NCBI GenBank assembly: GCA_902805555.1 | Contig: CADCSY010000110.1 | Coordinates: 16,807 to 80,806, forward strand | Source of the DNA: an uncultured Acidimicrobiales bacterium | GTDB lineage: Bacteria > Actinomycetota > Acidimicrobiia > Acidimicrobiales > CADCSY01 | DNA: 64,000 nucleotides | Reading direction: 5' to 3' | Shown here: positions 1 through 19,906 of the stretch, in pieces | How the letters are laid out: each line of letters begins with the position of its first letter | Position numbering within the stretch: position 1 is the stretch's first letter | Made by a program: the position numbers and the translations under genes | Notes under the pieces: generated by a model | What the model was told of the DNA's origin: nothing | Databases searched by the model: none | What the model saw: only the letters and a program-made list of their open reading frames with translations

Positions 1-2
1 TC

Positions 3-347
3 GGCGTGCTCCAGGACGCCTGCGGCACCGCCGGCCTGCCCGCCGCCTCCCTGTGGGCCAGCGTCCCCGCCTACGTGCCGGGGGCGCCGTCGCCGAAGGC
101 CGCCCTCGCCCTCGTCGAGCGGGCCGCCGAGGTGCTGGCCGTCGGCGTGGTCACGACCGACCTCGAGATCGCGAGTGCCTCCTACGAGCGACAGGTCAGC
201 GAGGTGGTGGCCGACGACGACGAGATGCGCGAGTACGTGACCCACCTCGAGGCCCGCTACAACGGCGAGGTCGACCAGGACGTGCCGTCGCCGGCGCAGC
301 TGGTCGAAGAGGTCGAGCGCTTCCTGCGCGACCAGCGCTTCGAGTAG
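3..347 (+). CDS. PAC2 (proteasome assembly chaperone-like) family protein, 3' part; 5' end outside window
   Basis: SLWASVPAYV...SPKAALAL and C-terminal LVEEVERFLRDQ typical of actinobacterial PAC2 proteins. Confidence 0.8.
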   Translation, partial: GVLQDACGTAGLPAASLWASVPAYVPGAPSPKAALALVERAAEVLAVGVVTTDLEIASASYERQVSEVVADDDEMREYVTHLEARYNGEVDQDVPSPAQLVEEVERFLRDQRFE

Positions 348-392
348 CAGCGCACGAGGAGCAGCGCACGAGGAGCAGGCCTCAGGAGCAGG
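346..392. repeat. short tandem repeat, 14-bp unit AGCAGCGCACGAGG x2 plus degenerate copies
   Basis: exact copies at 346-359 and 360-373, degenerate copies to 392, between convergent genes. Confidence 0.6.
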
Positions 393-12271: not shown

Positions 12272-13115
12272 ACCCCTGGACGAGGGAACCGTTGAGGTTG
12301 CCCGAGCGGAAGCCCTCGAGGTCGAGGGTGACGTAGCGGTAGCCGGCCCCGGCCACGGCGGCGACGACCTCCTGGCGACGGGCCACCACCGCGGCCAGCT
12401 CGTCGACCGGCAGCTCGAGCCGGGCCAGCTCGCCGTAGTGGCGGACCCGGAGCTGGCGGAACCCGAGCGCCCGCAGCGCAGACTCGGCGGCTGCCACCTC
12501 CCGGAGCACCCCGAGGGTGACCGGGGTGCCGTAGGGCACGCGGGAGGCGAGGCAGGCGGCCGCCGGCTTGTCCCACGTCCGCAGGCCGAGGGAGGCCGAG
12601 GCGGCCCGCACGTCGGCCTTGGTGAAGCCGGCGTCGACGAGGGGGAACGCCGCCCCCCGCTCCTCCGCCGCCCGCTGGCCCGGACGGTGGTCGCCGAGGT
12701 CGTCGAGGTTGACCCCGAGGACCACCGTCGCCCCCTCTGCCTCGGCGATCGGGCCGGCGACGGCCATGAGCTCGGCCTTGCAGTGGTAGCAGCGCTCCCC
12801 GTCGTTGGCTCGGTAGCGGGGATCGGCGAGCTCGGTGGTGGGCACCGGCGTCCAGCGCAGGCCCCACTCGGCGACGAGCGCCTCGCAGTCGGCAGCCTCC
12901 TCGGGTGCCAGGGAGGGTGACACGGCTGTCACCGCATGGGCGGCGGCGGGGCCGAGGACGTCGTGGGCCACCCAGGCCAGGAAGGCGGAGTCGGCGCCCC
13001 CCGAGAAGGCGACGACCACAGGGGCCAGGTCCTCGAGCCTCGACCGGAGAGCCGTCAGGCGCTCCGCGATGTCGCCGGGGCCGGCTGGGGCGCTGCGAGC
13101 GGCGCCGTCCGTCAT
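12270..13115 (-). CDS. larE: LarE-family ATP-dependent sulfur transferase
   Basis: PP-loop AFSGGADS, RCYHCK, DDLGDHRPG, WDKPAAACLASR, GFRSGNLN. Confidence 0.9.
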   Translation of the reverse strand: MTDGAARSAPAGPGDIAERLTALRSRLEDLAPVVVAFSGGADSAFLAWVAHDVLGPAAAHAVTAVSPSLAPEEAADCEALVAEWGLRWTPVPTTELADPRYRANDGERCYHCKAELMAVAGPIAEAEGATVVLGVNLDDLGDHRPGQRAAEERGAAFPLVDAGFTKADVRAASASLGLRTWDKPAAACLASRVPYGTPVTLGVLREVAAAESALRALGFRQLRVRHYGELARLELPVDELAAVVARRQEVVAAVAGAGYRYVTLDLEGFRSGNLNGSLVQG

Positions 13116-13247
13116 GCCGGACAGTCTGCCCGTCGCAGCGAAGCGGGGCGCCGGGGGTGCTGGTCGGGGCGCGAACACCCTGCGTAGTATGTGTTTCACC
13201 GTGACCTGCCCCATGCAGGTGCGGCCCCACATCCAAGGAGATGGTGC

Positions 13248-14633
13248 ATGACCGCACGACACCCGCTGTGGCGAGTCCTCGCCCTGTTCGCCGCGCTCTC
13301 GATGGTCGCCGCCGCCTGCGGCGACGACGACGAGGAGGCGGCCAGCACCGACACCACCGAGTCCGACACCACCGAGTCCGAGTCCGAGGAGTCGACTGAG
13401 TCCGAGTCCGAGGGCGGCGGCGGCGCGGCCGGCGGAGCCAGCCTGGCCGGCATGCGCGGCTCGCTCCCGCTGCTCGACCTCCCGAGCGACTTCGTCGACC
13501 GGCTGGACGAGATCGACCCGGACCTCGGCGGCACCTACAACTACGGCGCGGAGTCCTACGACGCCGTCGTGGTGATCACGCTGGCGGCGATCACCGCCGG
13601 CACGGACGGCGTCGAGTACGCCAACGAGATCAACGAGGTCACCCGCAACGGCGAGAAGTGCACCGACTTCGCCGCCTGCCGTGCGCTCGCCGAGGCGGGC
13701 ACCGACCTCGACTACGACGGCGTGTCCGGTCCCATGGAGTTCTCCGGCAACGGTGAGCCCACGGAGGCCAGCATCGCCATCCAGACCTTCGGTGAGGACA
13801 ACCGCATCGACACGTCGCTCGACGAGTTCATCCTCGCCACCGCACCGCCCGAGTCGGACGTCCCCCAGGTCCCGGCCACCGGCACCCGCGCCGGCGACGG
13901 CATCCTCAAGATCGGGACGCTCCTCCCCGAGACCGGCAGCCTCGCCTTCCTCGGCCCGCCCGAGATCGCCGGCGTGCAGCTGGCCGTCAACGACGTCAAC
14001 GAGACCGGCGGCTTCAACGGCCAGGACGTGCAGCTGTCCACCGGTGACTCCGGCGACACCTCGACCGACATCGCCAACCAGACGGTCGACCGCCTGCTCG
14101 GCGAGAACGTCGACGCCATCATCGGCGCCGCATCCTCCGGGGTGAGCCTGACGGTGATCGACAAGATCACCTCCGCCGGCATCGTCCAGTTCTCGCCGGC
14201 CAACACGTCGCCCGCGTTCTCGACCTACGACGACAAGGGCCTGTACTTCCGCAACGCCCCGTCCGACATCCTCCAGGGCAACGTGCTCGGCGAGGTCATC
14301 GCCGAGGACGGCAACGCCACGGTCGGCCTGATCGTCCTCGACGACCCCTACGGCGGCCCGCTGGCGGACCAGCTCACCGAGTCGCTCGAGGGCTCCGGCA
14401 GCGAGGTCGTGGTCCGGGTCACCTACGACCCCCAGGCCACCAGCTTCGACGCCGAGGTGGGCCAGCTCGCCGCCGAGGACGCCGACGCCTACGTCGTCAT
14501 CGGCTTCAACGAGTCGTCCCGCATCCTGACCACGATGATCGAGCAGGGCATCGGGCCGCAGGACAAGATGGTCTACGGCGTGGACGGCAACATGGGCAAC
14601 GCCCTCGGCGAGGACTTCGAAGCCGGGGAGTGA
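13248..14633 (+). CDS. branched-chain amino acid ABC transporter substrate-binding lipoprotein, circularly permuted
   Basis: AAGGAG RBS, lipobox VAAAC, LivJ/Peripla_BP_6 motifs present in swapped order. Confidence 0.9.
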   Translation: MTARHPLWRVLALFAALSMVAAACGDDDEEAASTDTTESDTTESESEESTESESEGGGGAAGGASLAGMRGSLPLLDLPSDFVDRLDEIDPDLGGTYNYGAESYDAVVVITLAAITAGTDGVEYANEINEVTRNGEKCTDFAACRALAEAGTDLDYDGVSGPMEFSGNGEPTEASIAIQTFGEDNRIDTSLDEFILATAPPESDVPQVPATGTRAGDGILKIGTLLPETGSLAFLGPPEIAGVQLAVNDVNETGGFNGQDVQLSTGDSGDTSTDIANQTVDRLLGENVDAIIGAASSGVSLTVIDKITSAGIVQFSPANTSPAFSTYDDKGLYFRNAPSDILQGNVLGEVIAEDGNATVGLIVLDDPYGGPLADQLTESLEGSGSEVVVRVTYDPQATSFDAEVGQLAAEDADAYVVIGFNESSRILTTMIEQGIGPQDKMVYGVDGNMGNALGEDFEAGE

Positions 14634-14668
14634 CCGACCCGCACGACCGCAGCACCGCATGAGCGGGG

Positions 14669-14690
14669 GGGGAGGGCTTCGGCCCTCCCC
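14669..14690 (+). terminator. hairpin (GGGGAGGGC-TTCG-GCCCTCCCC), probable terminator
   Basis: 9-bp stem with C(UUCG)G loop between convergent genes. Confidence 0.7.
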
Positions 14691-14802
14691 TCCTCGCGTT
14701 GGCACCACATCACGTGGCACCACGTCCTGTCAGACCACGTGTGGCGCCACCAGGTGCTGGCGCAGCGGCGGACTCGGTCGAGCCGCCCGCGTTGCGCCCG
14801 GC

Positions 14803-15630
14803 TCAGCGCGCCTTCGCGAGCGTCCCGAGGTACAGCTCGACCACCTTCGGGTCCGTGAGCAGCTCGTCTCCGGTGCCGCTGTAGGCGTTCGCGCCCTGGT
14901 CCAGGACGAAGCCCCGGTGGCAGATCTGGAGGCAGCGACGGGCGTTCTGCTCGACCATCACGATCGACACGCCGGCGGCGTTGATGCGACGGCAGCGGAT
15001 GAACACCTCGTCCTGGTAGGCGGGCGACAGCCCGGCCGACGGCTCGTCGAGCAGGAGGACCGACGGGTCCATCATCAGCGCCCGGCCCATCGCCACCATC
15101 TGGCGCTCGCCGCCCGACAGCGACCCGGCCCGCTGCTTGCGCCTGGTGCCGAGCAGCGGGAACAGGTCGGTCACCACGTCGACCCGCTCGGCGTAGTCGC
15201 GAGGCCGCAGGAACAGCCCCATCTGGAGGTTCTCCTCGACGGTGAGGCTCGGGAAGACGTTGTTGTTCTGGGGCACGTAGCCGACGCCCCTCGCCACCAG
15301 CCCGTGGGCCTGGAGGCCGGTGATGTCCTCGCCCCGGAGGCGCACCGAGCCCTGCCGGATCGGGATGAGCCCGAACAGCGACTTGAGCAGGGTGGACTTG
15401 CCCGCCCCGTTGGGCCCGATGATGCCGACCAGCTCGCCCTCGTACAGGGCGAGGTCGCACCCGTTCAGGATGTTGACCTCGGGGACGTAGCCGGCGACCA
15501 GGCGGTCGGCCTCCAGCAGGAGCGAACCGATGCCGCCCTCCCGTGCCGCCGGCCTGCCCCGGTCGTCCACCAGCTCGACCTCGATGGGGACGTCGGAACC
15601 GCCGGGGTCGTGCCCGCTCCGCTGGCTCAT
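14803..15630 (-). CDS. livF: branched-chain amino acid ABC transporter ATP-binding protein
   Basis: GPNGAGKST, LSGGERQM, LLLDEPS, VEQNA. Confidence 0.9.
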   Translation of the reverse strand: MSQRSGHDPGGSDVPIEVELVDDRGRPAAREGGIGSLLLEADRLVAGYVPEVNILNGCDLALYEGELVGIIGPNGAGKSTLLKSLFGLIPIRQGSVRLRGEDITGLQAHGLVARGVGYVPQNNNVFPSLTVEENLQMGLFLRPRDYAERVDVVTDLFPLLGTRRKQRAGSLSGGERQMVAMGRALMMDPSVLLLDEPSAGLSPAYQDEVFIRCRRINAAGVSIVMVEQNARRCLQICHRGFVLDQGANAYSGTGDELLTDPKVVELYLGTLAKAR

Positions 15631-16553
15631 GTCCGCCCCTCTCCCTCGGCCCGGGCACGGGCGTGGTCCTCGGCGAGCTGGCGCTCCTCCTCCTCGAAGG
15701 TGAGGGGGGCGTCGTGGTGCGCGCCGAGGTAGGCGTCGATGACCTCCTGGTTCGCCCCGATCGCGGCCGGTGGTCCCTCGGCGATGATCCGGCCCTCGGC
15801 CATCACGACCACCCAGTCCGAGATGTCGTACACCACGTCCATGTCGTGCTCGACGAACACGACCGTCATGCCCTCCTCGCGCAGGCCCTTCACGTGGCCG
15901 AGGAGGGACTGGGTCAGCGCCGGGTTCACCCCGGCCATCGGCTCGTCCAGCATGACGAGCCGGGGCTGCACCATCAGCGCACGGGCCATCTCGAGGAGCT
16001 TCCGCTGGCCCCCCGAGAGCGTGCCTGCGAAGTCGTCCCGCTTGGTGTCGAGCTTGAAGCGGGTGAGCAGCTCGAGGGCCCGTGCCTCGTTGGCCCGCTC
16101 CTGGCCGAGCCAGAGCGGCGGCAGGAGCGCCCGGCCGAAGCCCTCCCCGCGCTGGCCGGTGGCGCCGAGCTTCATGTTCTCCATCACCGACAGGCGGGCG
16201 AGCGACTTCGTCAGCTGGAAGGTCCTGACCATGCCCGTGCGGGCGACCTTGTGGGCCGGCATCCCGGCCATGTCCTCACCGTCGAAGGTCCAGATCCCGG
16301 AGTCGGGCTTGTCGAAGCCGGTCAGGAGGTTGAAGAAGGTGGTCTTGCCGGCGCCGTTGGGTCCGATGAGGGCGGTGATGCTCCCCCGCTGCACCTCGAG
16401 GTGGTCGACGTTGACGGCGGTCAGCCCGCCGAAGCGCCGGTGCACGCCGTCGACGGTGAGGATCGGGTCGGGCTTGGGCACGCCAGGACGGCGGTCGACG
16501 CCCCCGAGGGCCTCGACGGCGGACGCCGCAGCCGGCCGGTCAGCGACGGACAC
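15627..16553 (-). CDS. livG: branched-chain amino acid ABC transporter ATP-binding protein
   Basis: FGGLTAV, GPNGAGKTT, RTFQ, LDEPMAG, VEHDM, AYLG. Confidence 0.9.
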   Translation of the reverse strand: MSVADRPAAASAVEALGGVDRRPGVPKPDPILTVDGVHRRFGGLTAVNVDHLEVQRGSITALIGPNGAGKTTFFNLLTGFDKPDSGIWTFDGEDMAGMPAHKVARTGMVRTFQLTKSLARLSVMENMKLGATGQRGEGFGRALLPPLWLGQERANEARALELLTRFKLDTKRDDFAGTLSGGQRKLLEMARALMVQPRLVMLDEPMAGVNPALTQSLLGHVKGLREEGMTVVFVEHDMDVVYDISDWVVVMAEGRIIAEGPPAAIGANQEVIDAYLGAHHDAPLTFEEEERQLAEDHARARAEGEGRT

Positions 16554-17772
16554 TGAGATCGATCTCCCTGCGGTTGCCGAAGATGCCCTGTGGCCGGAAG
16601 ACCATGAGCAGCATGAGCCCGACGCCGACGAGCATGAAGCGGAGCTGGCCGATCTGGGTGCTGGTCAGGAAGTCGTTGCTGATGTAGCCGGCCTCCCGGC
16701 CCTGCTGCAGCGCGTTCTCGGCGAACGACAGCAGCGCCCAGAAGATCATCGAGCCGACGACCGGGCCGAACACCCGGGCCGTGCCCCCGAGGATGAGGGC
16801 GGCGTAGGCGAAGAACGTGATCGGCGTGCCGAAGTTGTCCGGCTGGATCGACTGGTTGCCGATCACGAAGACCAGGCCCCCGAGGGCACCGATCACGCCG
16901 CCGAACACCAGGCTCTGCATCTTGTAGGAGACGACGTTCTTGCCCAGGCTGCGAGCTGCGTCCTCGTCCTCACGGATCGACTTGAGCACCCGTCCCCACG
17001 GGCTGCGCATCAGCAGGAACACGAGGAGCGACGTGAGCGCCACCAGCCCCCAGCCGACGGTCAGGATCCACATGCGGCGCTCGTTGAAGGCGACCGGCGA
17101 CAGGCCCACCACGAGGATGACCGCCGCGACCGCGAGCAGGACGATCTCCCGCAGCCCGATCACCTCCCGCGACGCCACCGACTCGTCTGCGTCGGCGGCG
17201 CTCGGCGCGACCCGGGGCCGGCGGCTGCCGGGGAGGCGGCCCGGGAGGAGGCGGTCGACCACGATCCACAGCAGCGCCAGCGCCAAGAGGACGCGCACGA
17301 CGTCGAACGGCCCGACACCGCCGGCGTAGACCGCCTCCAGCCGGTACACCCCGGTGTCGTACGGGTTGATCCGGTAGAACTCGCCGGCGAAGTTCTGGAG
17401 CCCTGCAGAGCCACCGGTGACCGGCTGGAAGCGGGCCGACCGGAACACGAGGCGGACGATCTCCGCTGACGCGATGGTCACGATGGCGAGGTAGTCGGCG
17501 CGCAGGCGCAGCGTCGGCAGGCCGAGGAGCAGCGCGAACACGACGGCGGCGAGGATGCTGACGCCGATCCCCACCCACAGCGACCAGCCGAAGTACGTGA
17601 CGGCGATCCCCATCCCGTAGGCGCCGACGGCGAGGAAGCCGGCCTGCCCGAAGTTGAGCAGCCCGGTGTAGCCGAAGTGGACGTTGAGGCCGATGGCCGC
17701 CAGCGCGAAGTACGCCGCCTCGAGGCCGAACGCCGCACGCAGTGCGTTCTGGACGATCGCTCCCCAGTCCAC
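16540..17772 (-). CDS. livM: branched-chain amino acid ABC transporter permease
   Basis: GYTGLLNFGQAGF, LRADYLAIVT, SIREDEDAARSLG. Confidence 0.9.
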   Translation of the reverse strand: MDWGAIVQNALRAAFGLEAAYFALAAIGLNVHFGYTGLLNFGQAGFLAVGAYGMGIAVTYFGWSLWVGIGVSILAAVVFALLLGLPTLRLRADYLAIVTIASAEIVRLVFRSARFQPVTGGSAGLQNFAGEFYRINPYDTGVYRLEAVYAGGVGPFDVVRVLLALALLWIVVDRLLPGRLPGSRRPRVAPSAADADESVASREVIGLREIVLLAVAAVILVVGLSPVAFNERRMWILTVGWGLVALTSLLVFLLMRSPWGRVLKSIREDEDAARSLGKNVVSYKMQSLVFGGVIGALGGLVFVIGNQSIQPDNFGTPITFFAYAALILGGTARVFGPVVGSMIFWALLSFAENALQQGREAGYISNDFLTSTQIGQLRFMLVGVGLMLLMVFRPQGIFGNRREIDLSVRR

Positions 17773-17776
17773 CGGC

Positions 17777-19060
17777 TCAGCCCACCCGCTCGGCGCGGCC
17801 GAGGATGCCCTGCGGCCGCACCAGGAGCACGAGCACCAGCACCAGCAGGGCTCCCACGTTCTTCAGCTCGGTGGGCACGACGAGGGTCGACAGGTTGATG
17901 AACAGGCCGATGACGAAGCCGCCGACGAGGGCCCCGAAGGCGGTGCCGAGGCCACCGAGGGTGATCCCGGCGAACATCAGCAGGAGCAGCTGGAAGCCCA
18001 TCTGCCAGCTGACCTCCTCGCCGAGGCCGACGAGGACGCCACCGAGGGCGGCGAGCGCTCCCCCCACGATCCAGACGACAGAGATGACCCGCTGCACGTC
18101 GATCCCTGACGAGGCGGCGAGGTCGGGGTTGTCGGCCACCGCCCGCATGGCCTTGCCCATCCGGGTCCGCGTGATGAGCAGCGCGACCGTGACGAGGACG
18201 ACCACCGAGATCCCGATGGAGACCATGTCCTTCGGCGTGATGCCGACGAGGCCGAGCCCGAGGAAGTCGACCTGGCGCTGCCGGCCGTACTCCGCGAAGG
18301 GCCGGGTGCGACCGCCGAACTGGTACAGGAAGAGGTAGCGCAGCAGCAGCGACAGGCCGATGCTCACCACGAGCATGGCGATCAGGCCGGTGCCCCGTGC
18401 CCGCAGCGGGCGCCACAGGCCGCGGTCGAGCAGGCCGCTGGCGGCCCCGCCGAGCACGATCGCCAGCGGCGCCGCCCACAGGAGCGGGATCCCGGCCTCG
18501 AAGTTCAGGTACCAGCACACGAGCGCCCCGAAGGTCACCAGCTCGCCGTGCGCGAAGTTCGTGAGCCCGGTCGTGCCGAAGATGAGCGAGAGGCCGACGG
18601 ACGTGATGGCGATGATGAGGCCGAGCTTGATGCCCTCGACGCCCAGCTGCAGCGCCCGGTCAGTCGTGGTGGCCCGCTGCCGGGTGTCCTCGCCGAAGAA
18701 GAAGTTGAGGGGCCGGTTCTGGCCCGGGTTCAGGGTGAAGCTGAGGGTGGCGCGGGCCTCGTCGCGGAGCGCGACGCCCTCGGGGAGGGACTCGACGTCG
18801 ATGGTGGCGGTGTAGGCGCCGGGACCCGGCAGGTCGAGGGCGAAGCTGCCGTCCTCGTCGGAGGTGACCTCGCCGACCTCCTCGCCGCTGGCGTCGGCGA
18901 CGGTGATGACGGCCCCCTCGACCGGCACGTCCTCGTCGTCGACCTCGTTCGACAGGGTCCCCCGCACACCCTCGGCCCGCTCCTGCGCAGACGCCGTCCC
19001 GGCCAGCAGGCACAGGGAGAGCACGAGCAGGACCACGGGCACTGCTGCTCGCTGCCTCAG
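17777..19060 (-). CDS. livH: branched-chain amino acid ABC transporter permease with N-terminal secreted beta-sandwich-like domain
   Basis: GLTNFAHGE, MRAVADNPDLA, GITLGGLG; start CTG 19060 (GAGGAG RBS) or GTG 19042. Confidence 0.85.
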   Translation of the reverse strand: MRQRAAVPVVLLVLSLCLLAGTASAQERAEGVRGTLSNEVDDEDVPVEGAVITVADASGEEVGEVTSDEDGSFALDLPGPGAYTATIDVESLPEGVALRDEARATLSFTLNPGQNRPLNFFFGEDTRQRATTTDRALQLGVEGIKLGLIIAITSVGLSLIFGTTGLTNFAHGELVTFGALVCWYLNFEAGIPLLWAAPLAIVLGGAASGLLDRGLWRPLRARGTGLIAMLVVSIGLSLLLRYLFLYQFGGRTRPFAEYGRQRQVDFLGLGLVGITPKDMVSIGISVVVLVTVALLITRTRMGKAMRAVADNPDLAASSGIDVQRVISVVWIVGGALAALGGVLVGLGEEVSWQMGFQLLLLMFAGITLGGLGTAFGALVGGFVIGLFINLSTLVVPTELKNVGALLVLVLVLLVRPQGILGRAERVG

Positions 19061-19210
19061 CGTCGGCTCCTCATCAGGTCGCTCGTGCGGCGGCCGTGCG
19101 GCAGCCGACTCGGGATCGAGAGAGTGTAGGGGCACGCTCCGTGCTGCGTCGCAGCACCGACGTGCCGTGACGGCTCCCGCCCCGACCTGCTGGGGCTGGC
19201 CGGCGGTCGA

Positions 19211-19906
19211 TCAGCCGAGGCCGACGCCGGCCAGCACGTCGTCCAGGGGGGCGACCAGCCCCGTGTAGAACGGGCCGAAGTCGGCGTAGACGGCCGAGGC
19301 CCGGTCGTAGCGCATGGTGTAGACGCAGGCCTTGAGGTCGTCGGGGTGCACGCCGAACAAGGTGACGCCCCACTCGAAGTCGTCGAGCCCCGTCGACCCG
19401 GTCACGAGCTGGATGATGCGCCCGGAGAACGTGCGGCCGGACGTGCCGTGCTCGTACATCATCTCGAGGCGCTCGTCGTACGGGGTGGTGTACCAGTTGG
19501 CGTCCGGCTCCCGTCGCTTCGACATCCCGTAGAAGCAGAAGGCGGGCATGCCGTCGGGTGGGAGGACCGGGTGCAGCCGCGCCCGGCGCTGCTTCTCCGG
19601 CACCCCGGCGCTGTACTCCGAGAGCTCGGTGAGGGAGACGTAGGAGTCGACCACCTCGAGCCCCGCGACCTGCAGGTCGGCCTGGAACCGCCTGAGCCGC
19701 CACAGGTCGGGGCCGATGGCGACGAAGCCGAGGTCGGCCTTGTGACCGAGGACGGCGACGGGGACGACCTGGTGGTCGTCACCGTCACCGGGCGCCGTCA
19801 GCGCCTTGACCGCCGCCGTCACCGCAGCGCCGTCGGCGCCGGCGCGGACCTTGCAGAACAGGTGGAGGACCCCCCAGCCCTCCGACGGCACGACCGGCTC
19901 GACCAT
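19211..19906 (-). CDS. chdC: coproheme decarboxylase / chlorite dismutase family (HemQ)
   Basis: FYGMSKRR, NWY, EHG..GR, QLVTGSTGLDDFEWGVTL. Confidence 0.85.
   Translation of the reverse strand: MVEPVVPSEGWGVLHLFCKVRAGADGAAVTAAVKALTAPGDGDDHQVVPVAVLGHKADLGFVAIGPDLWRLRRFQADLQVAGLEVVDSYVSLTELSEYSAGVPEKQRRARLHPVLPPDGMPAFCFYGMSKRREPDANWYTTPYDERLEMMYEHGTSGRTFSGRIIQLVTGSTGLDDFEWGVTLFGVHPDDLKACVYTMRYDRASAVYADFGPFYTGLVAPLDDVLAGVGLG

Follow-up and report, generated by a model that had tools for sequence, protein, structure and literature searches.

Layout of the locus

We analysed a stretch of 64,000 nucleotides (the window) from contig CADCSY010000110.1 of an uncultured Acidimicrobiales bacterium. 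Positions 13248–14633 hold a gene for a lipoprotein of the LivJ type of substrate-binding protein (SBP), and beside it, tail-to-tail, lie the genes of a LivHMGF-type ATP-binding cassette (ABC) importer (Table 1). In the gene product, P0001, the C-terminal third of the canonical protein is set ahead of the N-terminal two-thirds. We consider it very probable that P0001 is a circular permutant of canonical LivJ-type orthologues, which likely still acts as the binding protein of the adjacent importer.

The open stop-to-stop frame extends from 13191 to 14633 on the forward strand, and the ATG at 13248 gives a product of 461 residues. The choice of this start codon is backed by the homologues, among which MTARHPLWR is a common N-terminus in a 38-sequence alignment of P0001 with homologues (alignment A1). 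The product is ordered as a signal peptide and lipobox, an acidic tether, a C module, a 17-residue linker and an N module. The lipobox reads ..LSMVAAAC24G; by the lipobox consensus, Cys24 is its cysteine, and A22, C24 and G25 are invariant across the 38 sequences. The tether is made of Asp, Glu, Ser and Thr to about residue 62. In the Pro-rich linker (residues about 199–217), R214 and G216 are invariant in A1 and D217 and G218 are nearly so; it closes in R-A-G-D-G, which is similar to the last residues of the tether in canonical relatives (compared with P0156 and P0012). A preliminary description, made from the letters of this stretch alone, had proposed the permutation from a set of motifs, all of which are present: SLAGMRGSLP...YGAESYDAVV...DYDGVSGPMEFSGNGEP...FGEDN is found at residues 65–185, and GDGILKIGTLLPETGSLAFLG...GAASSG...FRNAPSD...YGVDGN reaches the stop. 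The lipobox, the acidic linker and the Pro-containing linker that it named were likewise located in P0001.

Table 1. Features of the permuted gene and of the neighbouring transporter genes (positions are those of the window; A1 and A2 are the alignments described in the text; pLDDT, predicted local distance difference test score).
Feature	Position	Strand	Evidence
Permuted LivJ-type substrate-binding lipoprotein, whole coding sequence	13248..14633	+	461 residues plus stop; Pfam match; full-length colinear homologues
Signal peptide (residues 1-23) and lipobox Cys24	13248..13319	+	read from sequence
Acidic low-complexity tether (residues 25-62), predicted disordered	13320..13433	+	pLDDT <50; homologues differ in length and sequence
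C module (residues 63-200), homologous to canonical LivJ-type C-terminal third	13434..13847	+	A2 alignment, ANF_receptor match, module model
Linker (residues 201-217), old C-terminus to old N-terminus	13848..13898	+	A1 conservation; pLDDT 83-93
N module (residues 218-461), homologous to canonical LivJ-type N-terminal two-thirds	13899..14630	+	Peripla_BP_6 2-236; 3ipc 1..241; 4gnr E=3.8e-21
livF-like ABC ATPase, tail-to-tail with the SBP gene	14803..15630	-	ABC_tran E=3.5e-34; synteny conserved
livG-like ABC ATPase	15627..16553	-	ABC_tran plus BCA_ABC_TP_C
livM-like permease	16540..17772	-	BPD_transp_2 E=2e-44, two stretches
livH-like permease, with N-terminal signal sequence and CarboxypepD_reg-like extension	17777..19135	-	BPD_transp_2 E=1.7e-39, residues 169-437

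The two modules stand in swapped order

Pfam matches on P0001 were to Peripla_BP_6, ANF_receptor and Peripla_BP_5. The match to Peripla_BP_6 (PF13458; E=6.4e-34, 118.6 bits against a cut-off of 31.7) covers residues 220–454 and profile positions 2–236 of 343; it is not colinear over the whole profile, the remaining third of which is placed in front. P0001 stops seven residues past this match, and the neighbouring gene, on the opposite strand, ends only about 170 bases beyond that stop; a missing C-terminal third therefore cannot lie hidden downstream. When residues 63–215 were scanned alone, they matched positions 269–346 of the 353 of ANF_receptor, that is the last 78 (E=1.7e-4; 21.2 bits, under the curated cut-off of 25.4). 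Among the NCBIfam models, those for LivJ and urea binders were matched only in part and below threshold (57.5 bits, the cut-off being 477).

Homologues carrying both modules give the order directly. P0012, a relative of 759 residues with the order N-C-N-C, was aligned by BLASTP over residues 289–673 with residues 66–450 of P0001 (52.7% identity, E=4e-120), and further high-scoring segment pairs (HSPs) joined residues 183–450 to 14–277 and 66–133 to 685–756 of P0012. In a class-level sample of 301 genomes (tallies take in G275, flagged unpublished, which enters no other result), many genomes had an N-module match (57–62% identity, query about 200–458) with a C-module match directly downstream (query about 63–200, about 50–60% identity). 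An order-level sample of 401 genomes, the window's own included, contained canonical genes with an N module 68–69% identical to that of the window, and G636, which carries one such gene, belongs to the same family as the window; across both samples the canonical N modules were 57–69% identical to the window's. Moreover, the C modules of the window, of 11 permuted and of 19 canonical genes aligned end to end (alignment A2), at 34–62% identity to the window, with a G, a P, a D, a Cys..Cys pair and GEP as invariant columns.

Thus, canonical homologues give two HSPs in swapped order, which supports the circular permutation that the preliminary description had read from the motifs. That description had also held permutation to be incompatible with an alignment that runs colinearly over the full length to a characterised protein of the LivJ kind; we looked for such an alignment of P0001 and found none, and all 75 matched PDB sequences align to residues about 207–455 only.

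The permuted form is present in many genomes

Module hidden Markov models (HMMs) assigned the C-N order to 119 of the 120 listed homologues, the remaining one being P0012. A full-length colinear match without stops was found in 20 of the 401 order-level genomes, belonging to at least nine family codes, and in 13 of the 301 class-level genomes, all labelled 'same order'. The table of order-level matches includes genomes of one or two contigs (G348, G008). The junctions were also followed in contigs of sequencing runs. Those of X1, a DNA run that is possibly the source sample, bridge the tether/C-module junction and the C/N linker, as do those of X2 and X3, RNA libraries of a third study; contigs of X9, from a second DNA study, bridge the C/N linker and the stop codon. 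The check across the junctions and the survey for permuted and tandem-duplicate forms proposed in the preliminary description were thus both informative: contigs of independent runs span the junctions and show no misassembly, the permuted form is widespread, and tandem duplicates exist (see below). We conclude that the permuted form is genuine and conserved in many genomes.

Predicted fold and position of the cut

The AF2 model of the whole of P0001, built from A1, had a pLDDT of 82.3 and a predicted template modelling score of 0.80, with residues 1–62 disordered. Foldseek and VIA-align both found LivJ-type proteins with this model; as both are sequential aligners, the whole model was aligned over residues 218..461 only. 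These residues superpose on residues 1..241 of the 3ipc chain (Atu2422) with a Z score of 19.4 and a root-mean-square deviation of 2.9 over 239 aligned positions. In a search with a model of the C module only (pLDDT 87.5), all 50 listed VIA rows were chains of the type I periplasmic binding protein (PBP) fold, and in each the match lay in the C-terminal third (for example, 3ipc 238..348). The two ranges, 1..241 and 238..348, jointly tile the 3ipc chain. The two modules would reassemble the ordinary two-lobed fold.

Mapped on Atu2422, the cut falls at about residues 238–241. By the lobe boundaries of LivJ, the C-lobe segment presumably ends here, and the second hinge strand follows a few residues later. 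The preliminary description had placed the new termini inside one lobe; the site can be refined to the end of the C-lobe segment. From the range mapping and these boundaries, the permutant would keep the three original crossovers between the lobes and gain the linker as a fourth. The shift of the lipid anchor may, as that description suggested, affect docking or hinge dynamics.

The transporter genes

In the window, the SBP gene and livFGMH stand tail-to-tail. All of the 16 other permuted loci have this arrangement, as do 23 of the 25 canonical ones (the exceptions are L030 and L039). Permuted and canonical SBP genes share this placement with the same operon and are therefore positional orthologues. 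The window's own genome has four Peripla_BP_6 genes, and the three of normal order each adjoin a permease pair of their own, as judged by tblastn. Within the stretches fetched, no other SBP gene was seen beside the operons of the permuted loci. A promoter and terminator scan of 13000–14900 found nothing between the convergent genes.

In the LivH-like permease, the extension ahead of the membrane domain matches CarboxypepD_reg above the cut-off (E=1.7e-8, residues 65–135). By tblastn, many relatives have this extension, at loci of either type (for example, L029, L037, L043, L045–L047 and L049–L058). The LivM-like permease has about 70–85 extra residues between its two BPD_transp_2 stretches (about residues 143–222). 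This insertion looks lineage-specific, because the tblastn HSPs of most related loci break there with few bases between them. Upstream of the liv operon lies an ordinary-looking gene of the chlorite dismutase family (HemQ-like; 19211–19906, minus strand, E=7e-41).

Canonical, permuted and fused forms in the family

A search with the C module gave 1168 matches at E<=1e-3 and 481 at E<=1e-10. We classed 150 representatives from this search by the module HMMs: 58 were canonical (N-C), 38 permuted (C-N) and 51 fragments with the C module only, while one was a tandem fusion (N-C-N-C) and two had an odd architecture. We refer to the permuted form of the window as form A. A second permuted form, form B, comprises 11 complete C-N proteins (P0159, P0182, P0185, P0187, P0193, P0235, P0238, P0245, P0247, P0260 and P0262), which are cut about 24 residues earlier than form A; they start with a YFVDGN-type strand and end in ..GIGP. 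The N-terminus of form B holds the last C-lobe strand, with the Asp equivalent to position 226 of LivJ/Atu2422, and in trees its members are scattered among canonical clades.

The units of one tandem fusion, P0160, are 69% identical, and this protein heads a 17-member cluster drawn from many contigs. Complete lipoprotein genes of N-C-N-C order also occur at the same locus in G680, on one contig (L059, G680:C1; open frame of 885 residues), and in G706 (L060, G706:C2; 842 residues). Within each genome the two units are 99.5–99.7% identical, and the linkers between the units differ between the two genomes. Near-identical units with differing linkers suggest gene conversion or very recent duplication.

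Some members (P0131, P0152, P0185, P0235, P0245 and P0260, and the canonical P0144, P0180, P0194, P0205, P0225 and P0263) are 620–1125 residues long, with 250–720 extra residues ahead of the SBP modules. These long members may be upstream run-on calls of open reading frames in GC-rich DNA, or true fusions.

Trees and origin of the permutation

With the module HMMs, the canonical paralogues of the window's own genome proved too distant to serve as an outgroup, and the trees are for this reason unrooted. The FastTree set had 118 rows, with 43 of the 144 complete form-A proteins (all those from the loci and the C-module list, and 16 of the homologue list). For the IQ-TREE quick set, 25 near-duplicate or long rows were dropped, leaving 93. 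Form A required four changes in both trees, of which the starred branches force one in the FastTree and two in the IQ-TREE tree; form B required five (five forced) and six (five forced), respectively. When form A was constrained as one clade in the 93-row set, the likelihood was higher (p-value of the approximately unbiased test, p-AU, 0.767). The same constraint on form B cost 99.4 log-likelihood units, with a borderline p-AU of 0.0499.

We also built trees of 40 genomic loci, leaving out L030 and L039. A branch with an SH-aLRT of 97 has the full set of 17 form-A genes on one side, and the canonical orthologues lie outside the form-A clade in the SBP tree. The transporters of 16 form-A loci form a starred clade. 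Form A thus probably has a single origin and moves together with its transporter, and the trees suggest that form B arose more than once.

A route by fusion and trimming is suggested by the coexisting forms and by the likeness of the form-A linker to the tether end. The SBP gene would have undergone an in-frame tandem duplication, giving N-C-N-C, and this would then have lost its leading N module and its trailing C module. The lipoprotein leader would remain in front, and the former tether end would become the linker between the modules.

Ligand pocket and likely function

Position 226 of Atu2422/LivJ is a ligand contact. Using the 3ipc alignment, we placed the pocket residues manually; the P0001 residues L235, A295, S296, S297, A318, N319, T320, Y368, F420 and D446 correspond to LivJ/Atu2422 positions 18, 77–79, 100–102, 150, 202 and 226. 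All of them except S296 are invariant in A1. The list of the other LivJ ligand contacts comes from the docking passage of PMC6983066. The ratio of nonsynonymous to synonymous substitutions (dN/dS, by the NG86 method) was 0.15–0.41 for both modules in four of four permuted pairs, and hence below 1. RNA-library contigs cover the gene, and the flanks had no RNA contigs in the bins listed; the contig edges are a weak hint of a transcript boundary.

With an invariant pocket, a dN/dS below 1 and a conserved transporter context, P0001 is therefore likely to be a working binding protein of the amino-acid type. The N module would supply most of the pocket and the C module a part of it. As ligand we would expect an amino acid or a small zwitterion of similar kind, which would be passed on to LivHM.

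Weak and contrary points, and alternative explanations

Parts of the evidence for P0001 as a working permutant with the fold and history outlined above are weak, and some observations cut the other way. Searched by phmmer against PDB sequences, the front piece had as its best match the unrelated internalin K (E=0.17), and the A1 profile reached the swapped second domain only non-significantly (profile 59–112 against 4gnr 249–304, i-E 270). The structural matches of the C-module model are weak (Z 2.4–4.1, and Z 5 is not reached by any of 1000 chains), and only their consistency counts. To which lobe the new termini belong, and how many crossovers there would be, was read from the range mapping and the LivJ lobe boundaries. 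The window's transporter falls outside the clade of 16, in an unresolved polytomy beside canonical loci. In the window's lineage, a canonical gene may have given way to the permuted SBP: the window's own family has the canonical G636 at this locus, and the transporter is placed as just described; the relevant forks are unresolved in the tree. No tandem form was found on the direct lineage of form A, and the duplication route is for that reason one that we infer. The dN/dS of two canonical pairs was 0.08–0.24, lower than that of the permuted pairs (NG86 is crude and the pairs are few), and the higher values of the permuted pairs could mean relaxed constraint. Finally, the RNA contigs are no proof of transcription.

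The sequence searches bear on the possibility that an unrelated N-terminal domain was fused to a C-terminally truncated LivJ-type protein, with no permutation at all. The whole-protein Pfam and PDB sequence searches do report the N module only, and no PDB sequence is matched significantly by the front piece on its own; yet the front piece aligns over its whole length with canonical C modules, at up to 62% identity, its ANF_receptor match lies on the end of that profile, and its model matches only the C-terminal thirds of type I PBPs. We find such a fusion very hard to credit. An assembly chimera, in which two ordinary SBP gene fragments were misjoined in a metagenome-assembled genome, is less credible still and can be put close to zero: the window does come from a 135-contig assembly, and X1, the best DNA holder, may be the source sample itself, but the same order is found in nearly all listed homologues, from many sources, the full-length colinear matches in 20 order-level genomes run through without internal stops, and the C/N junction is bridged by X9, X2 and X3 as well. 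Only an error common to all these independent assemblies could still account for it. A more serious suggestion, though one we hold to be improbable, is that the permutant is real and no longer the binding protein of the transporter, being in decay or repurposed (for example, as a tethered sensor, or with altered dynamics and no docking). The somewhat higher dN/dS than in the two canonical pairs would fit this, as would an SBP gene that is convergent with the operon and not co-transcribed with it. The canonical orthologues are, however, equally convergent, the frames are intact in 17 of 17 genomic permuted genes, and the pocket positions are conserved. In addition, the transporters of the 16 permuted loci form a clade of their own, as expected under joint inheritance with the SBP, and the stretches fetched contain no second SBP gene beside these operons.

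The origin of the rearrangement can also be seen differently, as gene fission followed by re-fusion in the other order, or as recombination between two paralogous SBP genes. We think this unlikely, if less so than loss of the transport role. It gains from the absence of a tandem fusion directly on the form-A stem, and the authors of the work on TpMglB-2 of Treponema pallidum considered the possibility that the moved part of that protein was acquired from another gene (PMC4990184). Against it, both form-A modules are nearest to one canonical clade, in-frame N-C-N-C fusions exist in three lineages at this locus, the form-A linker ends like a canonical tether, as a fusion of whole mature units predicts, and no split genes for separate C and N modules were seen in 42 loci. 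We retain tandem duplication and trimming as the route by which the circular permutant would have arisen. On the most far-reaching view, the family is a living record of permutation by duplication in a two-lobed, hinge-bending protein: a single conserved locus has the normal form, young and old tandem fusions and, in different lineages, two permuted products, form A having arisen once and spread through several families with its transporter and form B repeatedly, and the rearrangement is adaptive; we offer this as a possibility, doubtful as a whole. If it is true, the advantage would come from moving the tether from the first N-lobe strand to the hinge side and adding a fourth connection between the lobes, which would alter closing and docking of a membrane-tethered binding protein.

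Relation to known systems

P0001 belongs to the same Pfam family as the canonical LivJ/LivK-type proteins (HAAT, type I / cluster B), such as Atu2422 (3ipc), LivJ of S. pneumoniae (4gnr) and LivJ of E. coli (1z15, 2liv). It shares with them the fold over residues 218–461 (Z about 19), the ligand-contact positions and the livHMGF partner genes. In contrast to them, its chain is rotated, with the part like residues about 238–348 ahead of the part like 1–241; the old termini are joined by the linker, and the lipid tether sits at a different point of the fold. Canonical orthologues occupy this locus in related Acidimicrobiia-type genomes, for example G636 (of the window's family), G311 and G588; their N and C modules are 68–69% and 51–57% identical, respectively, to those of the window. 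They have the same tail-to-tail place, a lipobox and a tether, and livHMGF proteins 58–82% identical to the window's, but their order is N-then-C. In annotation, profile searches report genes like that of P0001 as a truncated Peripla_BP_6 protein with an unexplained N-terminal region.

In the literature on natural permutation we found only TpMglB-2 and engineered sensors, and none for LivJ-type proteins, subscription journals being outside the coverage. The circular permutants of PBPs engineered for biosensors show that a rotated chain order can be tolerated (PMC6983066), but they are man-made and mostly of type II, and not natural genes with a transporter. TpMglB-2 (Tp0684) of T. pallidum is the founder of a proposed class of ligand-binding proteins, 'Type Ic / Cluster Bc', and resembles P0001 in being a natural permuted type I lipoprotein with an extra crossover between the lobes, many permuted homologues and a cognate ABC transporter nearby (PMC4990184). 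It differs in being of the glucose/galactose MglB type and in its cut, by which the C-terminus received the first three strands of the N-lobe; identity between this moved part, which is of unclear origin, and the matching part of EcMglB is only 13% (PMC4990184), whereas the modules of the window are 50–69% identical to those of orthologues. P0001 is thus like 'Type Ic / Cluster Bc' in its permuted type I design and not a member by descent, because in P0001 it is the last third that has moved to the front, and the Pfam matches are without Peripla_BP_4. As a rule, a natural circular permutation has to be deduced by comparison with distant relatives, and TpMglB-2 is without a recognisable intermediate. 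In the LivJ-type family, on the other hand, the permuted protein stands at 50–69% identity to normal orthologues of the same locus, and fused doubles are extant. With such close orthologues and extant fusions, the model of duplication, fusion and trimming, the influence of chain connectivity on hinge dynamics and the part played by the tether position in lipoprotein SBPs are therefore testable on matched natural proteins, and the main value of the locus lies in its use as an evolutionary and biophysical model system.

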